64,000 bases of DNA. It comes from Haliotis rufescens. Taxonomy: Eukaryota. A model generated the notes under the pieces. That model did not search any database. It was not told the DNA's origin and saw nothing but the letters and a program-made list of their open reading frames with translations. A program made the translations under genes and the position numbers. This document shows, piece after piece, positions 3,298-55,333 of this stretch. Positions within the stretch are counted from its first letter, which is position 1. The number at the start of each line of letters is the position of its first letter. Location of the stretch: assembly GCF_023055435.1 (NCBI RefSeq), contig NW_025964090.1:2542001-2606000 (forward strand). Direction: 5' to 3'.

Positions 3298-4009
3298 AAG
3301 AACCAGACAAAATATTTACTTCAAAACCAACCAATCAACTCATGATGATCCATAGAATCAGTGGTGAAGACGCATCAGTGGCATCTATGCCATATGGCGG
3401 CAGTGTAACAGTGCAACCCATACTAATGAGAACCTTTAAGAACCCATCACTGCAATAAGTAGTATGACATCTGATGTTGAGATGTGTCGGGTCGAGCAAT
3501 TGTGGTATTTCCCTGGAAGGTATTAACGGTTATTCTGCTGAAGTAATTAGAAGAGTGCCATGAAGTGAACCATAAGTTTGATTTGAAAGACGAATATTTT
3601 AAAGAAAACATTATTTAATTGGCCTGAATACACAATAATTGTAGAGACTGTGATCAATCAATAAACATGTGCAACTGGAATTATGGGTTCAATTTTCTAT
3701 GTGAGTGAATGTTGTTTTACGCTGCTGTCAGTATTATTCCAACTGTACAGCAGCCGGTAAATATGTCAACCAGTGATTGACCCCATGGTGATTCCGGGGT
3801 TAGAACAGGTCCCAAACAACCTATGCTGTAGGAGGTGACTAAATGGACCAATAGTCTGACTCAGTGACTTTGGTGATGGCGTGTCAACGTACCCCGACCA
3901 TGAGGGTCGCTGCTCACAATATCAATCACAAGATTTTCTGGTCCAGACTTGATTCGCTGTCATATAACTGGGCTACTGCTGAGTGTGTAGTCAAACAACA
4001 AACACACAA

Positions 4010-4307: not shown

Positions 4308-5649
4308 ATGAATAAGCTTGGCAACATATTCACTTCAAAACCTACCAATCAACGTATTAACAGTCTTTCTGCTGAATCAATTAGAAGAGTGCCATGTGAA
4401 GAAGAGCATTGACATTGAGTCACATTTTCAATTTGTTATGCAATTTTCCATAAGCCATACTTTTGTAAGTGACGGTAACGTTCAATCTCCGATATCCTGA
4501 AGTTGGGTATGAAATTTTCCAGCTTCCTTGAGAGATAGCAAGCTGTCTAGTCCTTCTCCATACATAATACTGCATGTAAATTAATGCACAGATGAAATCT
4601 GATAATTTCCCATATGCATTCATTAGTATGTAGGAACTATGTAGGAACTATGTAGGAACTATGTAGGAACTATTTGATTGGGATTTCCATCTATCCATGC
4701 TGAACTTTACAGGATGATTTCTAAAGAACTAATTCTTGAAGTGGAAGAGTGGTAACAAATAATCAGAAACAGACAAGTTTGATTTGAAAGATGAATATTT
4801 TGAAGACAAATTTATTTAATTTGACTGTATGCCCAAGGATATCAATAAAAATGTACAACTTGAATCCTGGGTTAAATTTTCTTTGTGAGTGAATGTTCTA
4901 TTACGCTGCAGTCAGTATTATTCCAGCCTGTCAATATGATCAGTGCTATATGTCAACCAGTGATTGACTCCATGGTGATTCCGGGGATACAACAGGTCCC
5001 AAACAGCCTATGCTGTAGGAGGTGACTAAATGGACCAGAGGTCAGACTCAGTGACTTAGGTGATGGCGTGTCAACGTACCCCGACCATGAGGGTCGCTGC
5101 TCACAATATCAATCACAAGATTGTCTGGTCCAGACTTGATTCGCCGTCATATAGCTGGACTGATGTTGAGTTAGGCGTTAAACAACAAACACACATCAGT
5201 GATTGACAGCACAAGCACCTACACAAACGTTTGGGTCGTGATGACACACAAGCGCTGATACACACTGTTTGGGAGTGGATGACACACAAGCACTGATACA
5301 CACTGTTGGGGAGTGAATGACACACAAGCACCGACACACACGTTTGGGTCGTGATGGCACACAAGCACTGAGACACACTGTTGGGGAGTGAATGACACAC
5401 AAGCACTGATACACACTGTTGGGCTGTGATGACACACAAGCACCGGTACACACGGTTTTAATCGTTGAATATATGTTCTGTTAATATTCTTCTAAATGTG
5501 CCAACAATCGCAGTTAGGGAGATGGTCCTGCTGGGAGTTCCATACAGGTGGCAGAAGACCCAATGGTCCCTAGTTTGGTGGCCTTCCTTTGTTTGCTTGT
5601 TTCCTCAAGTTGTATTGTCCTTTCATAATATGATTATGATTTATTTCAA

Positions 5650-12216: not shown

Positions 12217-12716
12217 ATGAATTGGCTGGGCAAAATATTAACTAAAAAACCTACCAATAAACTAATGATGATCCATAGTATCCCTGGTGAAGACGTATTA
12301 CTTTGGCTGCATTTGGCTCTGTAAAAAAATTAATGGATGGGTACACTCAGGCATTGTATTCATGCGTTATTTCTACATTTATTTTAGCGGATGAAAATAA
12401 CGGTTTAGGTTCAAAACGTTAGGGCAGCGAAATTATGGATACAACTGCAGGGAGTCTATATATCTTTGTATAGTCTTCTTGAGACGTCGGTGTGCACCCA
12501 GGGCAAATTTTGATTGTAAACCGATCACAAGTGACTCTATCACTATCGACGATTCGATCCATGCATTGACTGACAGCAACAGTCATCAATATTCTACAGC
12601 AATCTTTAAATTTACTTCAGTGTCCTTTTGACACATCCTTATAATCCCTTCTGAATTATCGTGACGATTATCAAGGATGACTGACGCCTAATCGGGACCG
12701 ATTCATTGACAACCTC

Positions 12717-12990
12717 GACCCGTGAAGGTCCGGGGTGGAATAGGTCTTCAGCAACCCATGCTTGCCGTAAAAAGGGACTATGCTTGTCGTAAAAAGCGAC
12801 TAACGGGATCGGGTGGTCAGGCTCGCTGACTTGGTTGATGCATGTCATCGGTCCCAATTGCGTGGATCGATGCTCATGATGTCAATCACTGAATTGTCTG
12901 GTCCAGACTCGATTATTTACAGACCGACGTTATATAGCTGGAATATTGCTGAGTGTGGCGTTAAACAAACAAACAAACAAACAAACAAAC
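12717..12990 (+). mobile_element. Short retroposon family C (structured non-tRNA head, (aaac)n tail)
   Basis: gacccgtgaagg/atccgggg...gtcgtaa(g)aggcgactaacgggatc...ggcgttaaacaaacaaac; TSD cattgacaac. Confidence 0.85.
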
Positions 12991-13618
12991 ATTGACAACT
13001 TCGGAAATCTCACCGCGTCACGATGATCGTGTCGGCCATTTTGTCGTCTTTCAGTTGAACGAAATGTATTACGACAGTGACTGTGGTAGGGGTAGACATT
13101 TTCTCATGACGATATTATTTAAATCATACTTGTTAATCTTAGCAAACAACAAATGAGTTGACTGAAGAACAATTTAAATATACATACGTTCATCGCGGAA
13201 CTATCGGTTTCCGGATACAGCTGTTTGTTTGTGTCAGTATAAACATGAAGTCACGCTTACTTATTGGAATACGTGTTTCGAGGTCCAGAGTAGGAATGTA
13301 AAAATATAAAAAAAGTGAGGGCCAAACATTGTATGAATGTCGTCGCAGGCTCCGAAGTTCACAGTTTGGCCCTCACCCAATGAAGGTTCATACTCAAGGG
13401 CACTCCCACAAAGTGAAAGTCAATTCTTAAAACATACCAATAAAGTGTTGAAAGTGCCTTTTGCTGTTCATTTTTAAAATGTTTTTATTGTTTGTGTTAA
13501 ATTTCCAAGGAAGCAAGTCGGACTCATATGGAAATGGCGATTTCCTTCATTACTTGTTTGATATTATTAACGTCAGACAAGGGCCGAATCGATGTCCATC
13601 ACTGGGCAGGAGTATAAC

Positions 13619-21137: not shown

Positions 21138-22247
21138 AACAGTTTGGGAAAATATTAGCTTCAAAACCAACCAATCAACTCATGATGATCCATAGAATCA
21201 GTGGCGAAGACGCATGAGCAGCATCTATGTCACATGGCGGGGGTGTAACAGTTCAATACACGCCAATGAGAAGCTTTAAGAACCCATCACTGCAATAAGT
21301 AATATGACATCTGTTGTTGAGATGTACCAGGTGGAGCAGGTGTGGTATTTCCCTTGAACGTATTATTCTGCTGGATTATTTAGAAGAGTGCCTTGAAATG
21401 ACGTATAACAGTTCATTAAAATAGAGTCACATTTCATGAGCCATACTTTCCTAACTAATTGTAATTTTCCATCTACGATGTCCCAAAGTTGGGTATGCAA
21501 TTTTCCAGCTTCCTGTGCAACAAGTGTCACGCAGACTGAGTCTAAGGGTTAAGCTGTCTAGCACTTCTCCATGCATGATACTGCATGTAAGTTAAAGCGC
21601 AGATGAAGTCTGATAATTTCTCATATGCATTCATTGGTATGAAGAAACTATTTTATCTAGAGTTCTATCTATCCACGCTTTACTTCATAGGATGATTTCT
21701 ATAGACCTAATTTTTGAAGCGGAACAGTGAACAAAAATAAGGAGAAACTGATTTGAAAGTTGAATATTATAAAGACAAATTTATTAAATTTTCCTGTTTA
21801 CGCAAGAATTGTGCAGATTGTAATCAATTAATAAACAATCTCAACAAGAATATCAATAAACATGTACAGCTGAAATCACGGTTTCAAGAGTGAATGTTTT
21901 TTTACGCTGCAGTCAGTATTATTCCAGCTGTACAGCAGCCTGTCAATATGATCAGTGCTATATGTCAACCAGTGATTGACATGGGGATTCCGGGGTTAGA
22001 ACAGGTCCCAAACAACCTATGCTGTAGGAGGTGTCTTAATTGACCAGAGGTCAGGCTCAGAGACTTACATCATGGCGTGTCAACGTACCCCGACCACGAT
22101 CGTCGCTGCTCACAATATCAATCACTGAATTGTCTGGTCAAGGCTTTATTCATAAATCTGGACTACTGCTGAGGGTGGCGTTAAACAACAAACACATATC
22201 AGTGATTGACAGCACAAGCACTGATACATACATTTGGGGTGCGATGA

Positions 22248-25330: not shown

Positions 25331-28300
25331 ATGCCTATTTTTCTTCTGTTCACGAATCTGCCAGCAAGTGCCATCCCAAAGGGGTTTCTGTTGGAAACCA
25401 CAAAAATGATCTCTAAAACTGTTCGGAAACCGGAAGAGGTAAGTTTAAGCAAATATGCATAGATATAGGGGAGCTTCGTTTTAAAGAAATGGATCCAGGC
25501 TGAATGGTAAAAACGTAATTTTGCATGCAACGGGAGTTTTCGCTCCCGTACTGCACGAATCCCTCTCTGAATGTCACATTGACACAGTACAGTGACTGAC
25601 AATCACAGCCAGTCTGGCCGGGGTGCATGCTTCTGCAAGAAAGAAACTGATACACCACTGAGCAGATTCAAGGTCAGAATATGTAGGTCATTCATTGGGA
25701 GCTGAAAATGAGGTCAGGTTACAGTGCAGCTTCACAATGTCATATGAGATAGATAAAACAGTTCTAACTCATTGCGCCATTGCAATGTTGACTTGGGTGA
25801 AATGCATTTTTGTGATAGAAATTTCCTCTTATAAAAAAGAAGCGATCAGAAATAGTGTGATCAAAATTTACAAAGTATCCCAATNNNNNNNNNNNNNNNN
25901 NNNNNNNNNNNNNNNNNNNNNNNNNNNNNNNNNNNNNNNNNNNNNNNNNNNNNNNNNNNNNNNNNNNNNNNNNNNNNNNNNNNNNNNNNNNNNNNNNNNN
26001 NNNNNNNNNNNNNNNNNNNNNNNNNNNNNNNNNNNNNNNNNNNNNNNNNNNNNNNNNNNNNNNNNNNNNNNNNNNNNNNNNNNNNNNNNNNTATTACGGG
26101 TAATGTATTATGATGACTGCTTGCTAAAAACTGATGTAACCTATTTTGTAAAATTTTAAAGTTCGAATAGGGATTTGTTTTATTTCATTGTTTGCCTTTA
26201 TGTTGTTAGTATTGGGACACGTGCTCTGAAAATGAATTGTTTAACCCCACAAAGCCCAAAGTGGGTGGGTTTCATCATGTCTGTGTTTCTGTGTGCGTGT
26301 ATCTGTGTGTGTGTCTATCTGTCTGCGTGTGTGTCTCTCTGTGTCTGTCTATGTGCGAGTGTATCTATCTGTGAGTGTGCGTGCGTGTGTGACTGTCTGT
26401 CTGTGTGCGTGTGTGTGACTGTCTGTCTGTGTGCGAATGTGCGTGCGTGTGTGTGACTGTCTGTCTGTGTGCGAATGTGTGTGCGTGTCTGTGACTGTCT
26501 GTATATCTGTCTGCGTGTGGGTAGGTGGGGCAGAGTGTTCTAGTCCGGACTTATGCCGGTGATAAAGTTCAAGCTCACTGAGTTACCATACCACAGTTTG
26601 ACTTGAATAACGCACATCATACTGACTTTGAGCTGACCAGTCCCCTAACTGCAGATTGTCAGGCAGAGAAACAACAAGTACAATCGTTTAACCTCATTAA
26701 GTATTGCACGGTATGGAATCAAACCACGGTCCACCCGCTCTCCAGGAAGGCGCTCTTACCACGCAGCTTGTGGTGGTATTGAGTAAACCATTTATTTTAT
26801 ATAGAGAAATGTCCGTTTGCAACTAAATGAGCGGGTTTGGTACGACTCTGCTTTTAACAGCATTACAGTTCTATCACAGCGTGTTAATCCAATGTAGCCA
26901 GAAAGCCCGAAGTGATGTAGATTATACATGTGTACCGCTTTGGTTACGGCATGATCACAGGATCACATGATCCCCATTGTGATTCCAGGTCCAACCTGTG
27001 CTGATCATAAAAGGCGACCAAACGGATCGGGTGGTCAGGCTTGCGTTATTCCCAATATCAGTCACTGGATTGTCTGATCCAGACTTGACGAGACTTTTTT
27101 TACAGGCTTCCATCATATAACTGGTGCCCTGCTGACTGCAGCATCAACAAAGTGCTTTTGACAAACCAAGAAACGTTATCAGGGTGAGCAGGGATACTGT
27201 TTGTTTGTTTGTTGTTTAACTCCACACATAGCAATATTCCAGCTATATGATGGCGGTCTGGAAATAATCCAGTTTGGACCAGACAATCCAGTGATTTATA
27301 TAATGAGCATCGATCCAAGCAATTGGAATACGATGACATGCATCAGCCAAGTCAGCATGTCTGACCACCCGATCCCGTTAGTCGCCTCTTACGGCAAGCA
27401 TAGTCGCCTTTTTACGGCAAGCATGGGTTGCTGAAGACCCGGATCTACCCCTGATTCTACCCGGATCTTCACGGGTCAGCAGGGACACTGACCCACATTC
27501 ACAAGTATCTAGCACCAACCTTTGCACAGCGAATTGCAGCACCTTATAATAAGACGGCTAGGCCACTCATGTTCCCCTCTCAGCTCAATAGGAAATAAAT
27601 TATCTTTGAATGAAAGTGTGACTTATTTTATTGCATGAATTTAAAAAGAAATATTTGAATGGATAGTTCCATAATAATTCCATGATAATAAAAAAATTAG
27701 CTTTTTTCGGCTTAATGACATAACGTATTTCATATATAATTCAGATATGATAATTCTAAATGTTAAACGATTCGGAACATAAACTAGAACTAACTAGGAA
27801 CTGGTTTTCCCTCGTTTAGTCTTCCTAACAAGGTTTGAGACCCGTGAAGATTCCGGGGTAGAATAGGTCTTCAGCAACCCATGCTTGCCGTAAAAGGTGA
27901 CTATGCTTGTCGTAAAAGGCGACTAACGGGATCGGGTGGTCAGGCTCGATGACTTGGTTGATGCATGTCATCGATCCAAATTGCGTGGATCGCTGCTCAT
28001 GATATCAATCACAAGGTTAAACAACAAACAACCAACCAACCTAACAAGGTTTGAGCATACAGATGGAGCCTGAAAAGCAAAAGCATACATGGAAAACTAC
28101 AACACATAGCAGGCGTTATGTCACGTAGGCTGAAGAATAGTTTTAACACTAGGTACGACTTGTACCAGATAGCTGGGGTCTATCATGATCTCAAGTATGT
28201 TGGAAGTAAGTATACGTAGTGACCTCTCATAACAAGAATTTGTTCAATAGCCAAGATGGACGCAGGTTACCGTATTTTCTCCATTAAACGCAGGCAGGCA

Positions 28301-32526: not shown

Positions 32527-32890
32527 GACCCGTGAAGATCCGGGGTGGAATAGGTCTTCAGCAACCCATGCTTGCCGTAAAAGGCGACAATGCTTGTCTT
32601 AAGAGGCGAAAAACGGGATCGGGTGGTCAGGCTGACTTGGTTGATGCAGGTCATCGACCCCAGTTGCTTGGATCGATGCTCATGATATCAATCACTGGAT
32701 TGCCTGGTCCAGACTCGATTATTTACAGACCGCCGTCATAAAGCCGGAATATTGCTGAGTGCGGCGTAAAACAACTAACCAACCACAATATCAATCACTG
32801 GATTGCCTGGTCCAGACTCGAATATTTACAGACCGCCGTCATAAAGCCGGAATATTGCTGAGTGCGGCGTAAAACAACTAACCAACCACA
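32527..32890 (+). mobile_element. Short retroposon family C with duplicated 3' end, nested in an older family-C copy
   Basis: Head at 32527; a ~104-bp tail duplication; older copy at about 32385-32980. Confidence 0.8.
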
Positions 32891-47081: not shown

Positions 47082-47355
47082 GTTGGTTTGTTGGTTGGTT
47101 TGTTGTTTAACGCCGCACTCAGCAATATTCCAGCTATATGACGGCGGTCTGTAAATAATCGAGTCTGGACAAGACAATCCAGTGATTAATAGCATGAGCA
47201 TCGATCCACGAAATTGGGATCGATGACATGTATCAACCAAGTCAGCGAGCCTGACCACCCGATCCCGTTTGTCGCCTTTTACGACAAGCATAGTCGCCTT
47301 TTACGGCAAGTATGGGTTGCTGAAGACCTATTCTACTCCGGAATCTTCACGGGCC
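47082..47355 (-). mobile_element. Short retroposon family C
   Basis: 11-bp TSD ggtcacaatgt. Confidence 0.85.
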
Positions 47356-50604: not shown

Positions 50605-50872
50605 GACCCGTCAAGATCCGGGATAGAATAGGTCTTCAGCAACCCATGCTTGCCGTAAAAGGCGACGATGCTTGTCGTAAGAGTCGACTAACTGGATCGG
50701 GTGGTCATACTAGCTGACTTGGTTGATGCATGTCATCGTATCCCAATTGTGTGGATCGATGCTCATAATGGCAATCACCCGATTGTCTGATCCAGACCCG
50801 ATTATTTAAGACCCCCGTCATATAGCTGGAATATTGCTGAGTGTGGCGTTAAACAACAAATATACAAACAAA
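50605..50872 (+). mobile_element. Short retroposon family C in a dynein intron
   Basis: TSD agtacac(t/a)gtg. Confidence 0.85.
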
Positions 50873-55097: not shown

Positions 55098-55333
55098 GTT
55101 TGTTTGTTGTTTAACGCCACACTCAGCAATATTCCAGCTATATGATGGCGGTCTGTAAATAATCTGGACCAGACAATCCAGTGATTGACATCATGAGCAT
55201 CGATCCACTCATTTGGGATACGATGACATGCATCAACCAAGTCAGCGAGTCTGACCACCCAATCCCGTTAGTCGCCTCTTTACGGCCAGCATGGGTTGCT
55301 GAAGATCTATTTTACCAAGCATTTTCAAGGGGT
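55098..55333 (-). mobile_element. Short retroposon family C
   Basis: Reverse complement, nested in an older copy. Confidence 0.75.

Follow-up and report, generated by a model that had tools for sequence, protein, structure and literature searches.

A pseudoknotted RNA head shared by retrotransposons and viruses: a candidate exoribonuclease-resistant element

The conserved head of about 70 bases that opens a SINE family of Haliotis rufescens is predicted to fold as two pseudoknots in series, and the same motif is found far from that family. Six RNA-virus contigs have the whole motif in their 3' UTR, one large DNA virus contains it as well, and in an intact I-group LINE it lies directly behind a separate minimal HDV-like ribozyme; both the viral and the LINE setting are new. 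We propose that the head is a mobile RNA module of non-LTR retrotransposons and viruses that likely blocks Xrn1/Xrn2, as viral exoribonuclease-resistant RNAs (xrRNAs) do. The chance that it constitutes a new class of exoribonuclease-resistant RNA, trimming and protecting uncapped retroelement RNA, appears to us to be about even. For LINEs and SINEs without an obvious promoter, the source of a full-length 5' end is an open question; their shared head was noticed in 2016, and the question is now reduced to a 70-nt RNA that can be assayed.

Relation to published LP-SINEs

Mollusc LP-SINEs were described by Matetovici 2016 (PMC4758252), who report that two Nimb LINEs and one RTE LINE open with the first ~70 bp of these SINEs. 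The carriers of this LINE 5' domain listed in the available text are Nimb-17_LMi, I-3_DR, RTE-9_CPB and the scallop MESC SINEs, and a promoter is proposed there for the head, with the Pr77 ribozyme cited as precedent. LP-SINEs are likewise TSD-flanked mollusc SINEs whose head derives from a LINE (PMC4758252), and since the H. rufescens SINE has TSDs, a LINE-derived head, a short tandem-repeat tail and a LINE-type 3' end, it is an LP-SINE or close kin. The scallop heads (PMC4758252, Suppl. Fig. S2) contain the identical hairpin word and show, by eye, an identical S1/S2 layout; the head was therefore already known as sequence. For its identity with the head of Hdi_LP and with three Repbase LINE heads we rely on what that paper states in its text and not on the sequences themselves. 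The available part of PMC4758252 gives the head no structure and mentions neither viruses nor an upstream ribozyme, and a literature search that covered few subscription papers returned no structure for the head and no link to viruses or xrRNAs.

The element in the window

The window, that is, the whole stretch of 64,000 nucleotides analysed, contains a copy at 12717..12989 (+) that consists of a LINE-type head, a body, a LINE-derived tail homologous to the 3' end of the LINE L435, and (CAAA)n. It is flanked on the same strand by target-site duplications of 13 bp at 12704..12716 and 12990..13002, which differ by one mismatch. The preliminary description named six copies, at 12717, 27477 (minus), 27839, 32527, 47355 (minus) and 50605, and these do all begin with G(A/G)CCCGT and have a direct repeat on either side, in some cases with one mismatch. 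The heads of the other five occupy 27365..27477 (-, with an internal duplication), 27839..27939 (+), 32527..32603 (+), 47255..47355 (-) and 50605..50704 (+), and a seventh, absent from that list, lies at 55255..55333 (-) and scores 43 bits with the covariance model. On the window this model gave 17 matches at E<=1, seven of them above 40 bits and one of them new (55333, minus), while the hairpin word occurred 9 times against 0.02 expected. ARAGORN found no tRNA genes in the window. A first look across the genome yielded 2999 candidates, 40 of which were scored, so the SINE family is abundant.

A decayed head of an older subfamily is present at 3779..3855 (+). The copies at 3779 and 32386 had been offered as compensatory evidence for the fold, a claim that fails since the two lie in common flanks and are 95% identical to each other; the copies at 4967 (92%) and about 21976-21980 (87%) are also duplicates of this one insertion, and the four are not independent covariation. 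Locally, then, one old insertion was duplicated together with its flanks, and a young copy inserted at 32527 within the 32386 unit. At G000:C57, from 2176621 to at least 2236908, units that recur every 600-640 bp or so are arrayed in tandem; at least 80 are listed, each with an old head.

Fold of the head

An alignment was built from one natural copy of each of 20 families, selected visually so that the head was short and intact; two copies came from this genome, eight from metagenomes, four from species-genome assemblies and six from viruses. The exact metagenome scan gave at least 120 stretches, with about 3500 estimated, and those among the matches listed were mostly host repeats of several families. 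RNAalifold recovered from the alignment stem S2, the hairpin and a further stem, S3, that the preliminary description had missed. The resulting order is S1, U, S2, S1', a loop ending in AGAAUA, S2', S3, its loop, S3', U, the hairpin, UAA and a tail.

In the 12717 copy (all on the plus strand) the predicted 5' H-type pseudoknot spans 12719..12749, with covariation over the 20 families. It is formed by S1 (12719-12722 / 12731-12734), the one-base loop U at 12723 and S2 (12724-12730 / 12743-12749), and the loop before S2' ends in GGAAUA here in place of the conserved AGAAUA. Predicted stem S3 follows at 12750..12762 (12750-12753 / 12759-12762), with two-sided change in 3/4 of its pairs across the 20-family alignment, and its loop (12754-12758) is the 5' strand of a predicted second pseudoknot. 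The near-invariant hairpin S4 plus UAA, identified by word count and covariation, occupies 12786..12803 and is preceded by an extra copy at 12764..12785, the 22-nt duplication of young copies that had been noted earlier. The 3' strand of the second pseudoknot, which would pair with the S3 loop, is placed at 12804..12807 and is supported by a permutation test on 22 families.

On the unfitted alignment the revised fold pairs 84.9% of cells, against 67.5% when shuffled and 38-47% in slid controls, where the shuffle controls ignore kinship and several rows are mis-registered or decayed. By helix, pairing amounts to 87.5% for S1, 82% for S2, 87% for S3, 62% for the second pseudoknot and 99% for the hairpin, the invariance of the last being partly circular since all members were found via the hairpin. 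The fold first put forward pairs 71% of cells. Two of its four helices stand: P2, which corresponds to S2, and the hairpin. The other two are not supported across the 20 families, since P1 (the 5' end with the 3' CGGG) reached 47%, with 1986 of 5000 permutations as high, and the GGGGT/AACCC pseudoknot 59.5%, with 360 of 5000 as high; in the young local subfamily P1 can form, and there it may represent a genuine alternative pairing. The corresponding test for S1 gave 2 of 5000, and in none of 5000 permutations (22 families, register shifts allowed) did the S3 loop pair as well with the tails of other families as with its own 3' tail.

The virus L441 and the LINE L435, both outside the training alignment, fit S3 and the second pseudoknot, which favours the proposed module; the model predates the discovery of L441, which forms both helices with pairs of its own. 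The second pseudoknot is weak or absent in vir152, vir153 and g311. Single-strand folding of the 12717 head gave a z of 0.60, not above shuffles, as expected because pseudoknots cannot be scored. The analysis supports the earlier view that these promoter-less SINE-like elements have their 5' end marked by an RNA structure that is conserved and functional. Among the variants, L075, L143, L092 and their kin have long simple-sequence insertions in the loop before AGAAUA with the remaining head kept, and a metagenomic repeat (L048:1370-1520) carries two whole heads in tandem.

A ribozyme in front of the motif in a LINE

In locus L313 the head lies about 340 nt ahead of a zinc-knuckle ORF1. A genome search with this ORF1 returned many intact copies, with the head 640-710 nt upstream of the match in 19 of 20 loci, in agreement with the earlier suggestion that the head is common to LINE 5' UTRs. 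Besides ORF1, one full LINE, L435, contains an ORF2 carrying endonuclease, reverse transcriptase and RNase H, and its TSD is 12 bp long; we infer that it belongs to the I group and is likely a Nimb element. Its 3' end is the homologue of the SINE tail, and its motif lies about 550 nt before ORF1.

The 5' end of this young, intact LINE is a 57-nt element that abuts the motif (L435:412-468; G000:C13:24750311-24750367). Starting at G+1, it has the P1/P2/P3/L3/P1.1/catalytic C layout, and nine of nine copies agreed with our descriptor; RF02682 scored it at 27 bits, under the 44-bit threshold of that family. By this layout it is modelled as a minimal HDV-like ribozyme. The genome holds 1077 first-look candidates for it, and Nimb is absent from the ribozyme-bearing clades listed in PMC5786205. 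When the motif region was used as query, 28 of the best 30 of 1814 candidate LINE copies (a few of the 30 share flanks) began at the first G of the ribozyme and the remaining two were cut inside it, so that none begins at the motif. At L361 two LINE 5' ends lie back to back and oppositely oriented, separated by about 100 bp that include a SINE fragment.

The retention of upstream sequence in 30 of 30 LINE copies argues against self-cleavage or promoter action at the motif's own 5' edge, since an efficient cleaver or promoter there would strip the ribozyme from new copies. An internal polymerase II promoter, as proposed for LP-SINEs in the available text of PMC4758252, would account for the terminal position and the purine start, and Pr77 offers a precedent for a dual promoter and ribozyme. 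We nevertheless consider it very unlikely, since the LINE copies begin 57 nt upstream of the motif, the stems show two-sided covariation, and the motif is present in RNA viruses, which have no DNA stage. A DNA-level role could have been added in the retroelements.

Where ribozyme-less elements start

Five families that lack the HDV-like ribozyme were compared (n=24, 14, 8, 17 and 46; a sixth, with n=3, was left out as too small). In each of them similarity between copies sets in 0-2 nt ahead of the C run of S1, the sequence farther out is random flank, and no HDV-like fold was found within 130 nt upstream. The first base is A in 75%, G in 85%, A in 50% and A in 52% of copies in four of them, and the fifth starts with GA. 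In the family with about 60 extra loop bases the 5' end is still at S1, so it is the structure that sets the end, rather than the spacing to some downstream element. When 30 SINE copies were selected by their body, 20 were full-length by script; by eye three more were full-length with point changes and seven were cut at scattered places. None of the 30 begins at the internal UAA and none has shared extra sequence upstream. These genomic 5' ends would fit a stable RNA whose own 5' end lies at the element.

Self-cleavage, which the preliminary description had suggested, is not supported here as the likeliest mechanism. A ribozyme of undescribed type cutting at its own 5' edge would fit the many invariant unpaired bases, the complex fold, the likeness of the hairpin and following CUAA to HDV J4/2, and the gap between TSD and C run, which is only GA or A in 11 of 15 and 12 of 13 TSD-bearing copies. 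However, the upstream sequence is kept in the LINE, which has a separate ribozyme, the putative site has no conserved base across families and viruses, no SINE copy starts at the internal UAA, and efficient cleavage would presumably sever the genome end of the linear RNA viruses that hold the motif within their 3' UTRs. We give this explanation little credence.

Three small-RNA runs from a related organism, of very low depth, placed 11, 124 and 14 reads on one SINE copy; at that depth the reads were mostly ~30-nt, antisense and from the body, with no pile-up at +1. In the SINE body at L007:1662-1704 these ~30-nt RNAs, mainly antisense, have a common start at 1704 in all three runs and are piRNA-like.

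The motif in viruses

Scans of IMG/VR found the whole motif in seven distinct viruses, six of them small RNA-virus-like contigs in which it lies in the sense orientation 6-198 nt past the last stop codon and its start is 80-180 nt from the contig end. Pfam identified RdRp or RNA-virus capsid domains in five of these six. The motif follows the last stop by 11 nt in L152/L154 (Peptidase_A21 capsid), 6 nt in L153 (nodavirus capsid upstream), 74 nt in L155 (RdRP_3), 24 nt in L173 (RdRP_4) and 198 nt in L441 (RdRP_3 and Viral_coat); in L151, which has no Pfam match and is RdRp-like by eye, the distance is 101 nt. L151 also has a second tandem copy, cut by the contig end, and L441 a hairpin remnant upstream of the motif. 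Since RNA viruses have no DNA stage, the motif must function at the RNA level.

The seventh occurrence (L172:2457-2530) is intergenic in a DNA-virus contig of 212,482 bp, a length that matches Chilo iridescent virus; it lies 121 nt past one ORF and ahead of a kinase-like ORF, and its S2 closely resembles the S2 of the local SINE. Chilo iridescent virus has an HDV-like ribozyme, according to the available part of PMC8256844, which may overlap the L172 site; an HDV fold for that site was rejected by our descriptor.

Patterns that freed the hairpin stem or loop (19 and 9 viral stretches) gave no new full motif, and a further, looser pattern (17 stretches) gave one, L441. Only 6 of 87 distinct hairpin-only sites in viral loci have the pseudoknot, the phage contigs with hairpin-only matches have none, and non-members scored at most 30 bits with the covariance model (168 loci, some repeated). 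Whatever the motif does, the recurrence of one near-invariant RNA fold in RdRp viruses of several lineages, in a large DNA virus and in retrotransposons speaks for exchange among these groups and for a host partner that is conserved.

A role in translation is a rival reading. Tombus-like and toti-like viruses are uncapped, and the Alu head keeps SINE RNA on ribosomes, where it captures LINE protein. A cap-independent translation or ribosome-recruiting element might enhance translation from the 3' side in RNA viruses that lack a cap, promote the ORF1 start on ribozyme-cleaved LINE RNA, and hold SINE RNA on ribosomes in the manner of the Alu head. Consistent with this are the position just past the last stop in tombus-like and toti-like contigs, the site in the LINE, which abuts the HDV-like ribozyme and precedes ORF1 by about 550 nt, and the invariant loop sequence, which suggests a conserved cellular partner. 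By itself, however, such a role does not account for the ends that five families have 0-2 nt ahead of S1, and we regard it as unlikely; it is compatible with an exonuclease block and does not exclude one.

A binding site for a host or element protein, serving particle assembly, localisation or the second-strand step while the reverse transcriptase sets the 5' end, would explain the sequence invariance, and R2 proteins are reported in the available text of PMC8256844 to bind 5' RNA pseudoknots. It would, however, have to serve unrelated RdRp viruses as well as LINEs of different clades, and it leaves the differing 5' ends of LINE and SINE unexplained, so that we see it as highly improbable.

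Comparison with known RNA classes

That the head falls outside the HDV topology, as had been stated, was confirmed with our own descriptor (nested double pseudoknot P1-P2-P3-P1.1-P4, G at +1, YCC-type L3), which matched none of 20 heads and none of four window copies with flanks. The HDV-like ribozymes of R2, RTE and Ingi/L1Tc resemble the head in being the 5'-terminal RNA of non-LTR elements and in placing CUAA and a closing helix after a hairpin, but the head lacks their P1/P3/L3 core. Rfam gave no match in the window at gathering score and only chance-level snoRNA matches around the 12717 head. For twister, pistol and hammerhead, from which the head had been distinguished before, and likewise for twister-sister and hatchet, there was no Rfam match to E=10 at 12600-13000 or to E=1 at nine loci; to our knowledge, the helix orders of all five differ from that of the head.

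Tombusvirus and luteovirus 3' cap-independent translation enhancers lie in the 3' UTR and have a short invariant hairpin sequence. The motif is similar in both respects, but its fold differs from the known folds of those enhancers and it matches no Rfam family.

Viral xrRNAs (flavivirus classes 1-2, plant-virus class 3 and coremin) are likewise compact, pseudoknotted and found where viral 3' UTRs begin, in some cases as tandem copies, and across unrelated virus families including dsRNA viruses, as far as the available text of PMC12397905 and PMC10520033 goes. The six RNA-virus contigs similarly have a pseudoknotted element in the 3' UTR on the sense strand. The head differs in helix order and sequence, has no flavivirus-type three-way junction and, unlike viral xrRNAs, also stands at retrotransposon 5' ends. 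Compared by eye with the motif in the available part of PMC10520033, the head does not have the coremin arrangement of a 4-bp hairpin with YGAD/YGNNAD loop, an 8-10 nt spacer and a second hairpin.

A possible block to 5'-to-3' decay

We suggest that SINEs and ribozyme-less LINEs may be copied within host read-through transcripts, and that decay would chew away the flank until it stalls at the base of stem S1. The stall would leave a precise, protected and uncapped 5' end, which could then be reverse-transcribed by the LINE machinery. Xrn1 needs a 5' phosphate, and Xrn enzymes do not load on a 5'-OH. In the LINE with an HDV-like ribozyme in front, cleavage would leave a 5'-OH and Xrn would presumably not load, so that such copies would keep the ribozyme. 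In viruses the motif would give a stable 3' subgenomic RNA, and the head may additionally aid translation of uncapped RNA. An exonuclease block is the one reading that accounts for all three settings with no additional assumptions.

Several observations favour such a block. The motif has a viral 3'-UTR position and occurs in tandem, as do the 3'-UTR xrRNAs known from Zika virus (PMC13611918, available part). Ribozyme-less elements end at the base of the first stem, and a plant-virus xrRNA, in the text available, halts Xrn1 "precisely at the base of P1" (PMC12397905). The LINE keeps its upstream sequence in 30 of 30 copies, where the ribozyme would leave a 5'-OH. Others count against it. According to the available part of PMC10321173, known frameshift pseudoknots of the H type fail to stall Xrn1, so that being a pseudoknot is not sufficient. 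Some LINE copies (0 of 30 observed) might be expected to begin at the motif if the 5'-OH were ever phosphorylated. A loop sequence so nearly invariant would be expected of a site that binds a ligand or a protein sooner than of most xrRNAs, coremin excepted, the often purine start also fits polymerase II initiation, and the second pseudoknot is not strong in every member. An intact motif is kept in the LINE even though the end is already made by the ribozyme, a hint of some further function that favours an added role in translation.

The broader proposal, that an exonuclease-blocking RNA has moved among RNA viruses, a DNA virus and animal LINEs and SINEs and defines the 5' end of promoter-less retrotransposons via stalled host decay, we hold tentatively, with a probability slightly short of even. 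If it is true, there would be a third route to retrotransposon 5' ends beside internal promoters and ribozymes, and a cellular-genome xrRNA in thousands of copies. If Xrn1 is blocked by the head, xrRNAs are not confined to viruses, retrotransposons would mature their RNA via host decay, and a compact stabilising module becomes available.

Occurrences in prokaryotic species genomes

A scan of prokaryotic species genomes gave six stretches with a match to the head. L309 was rejected as a member since it is without the fold, and L310, L312 and L313 were rejected as prokaryotic occurrences since they lie in microsatellite-rich or LINE-bearing DNA, which we read as animal contamination. These three are instances of animal-type repeat DNA in prokaryotic species genomes, L308 and L311, in which the head was examined, may be further ones, and L313 places a LINE 5' end and ORF1 within the assembly of a bivalve symbiont.
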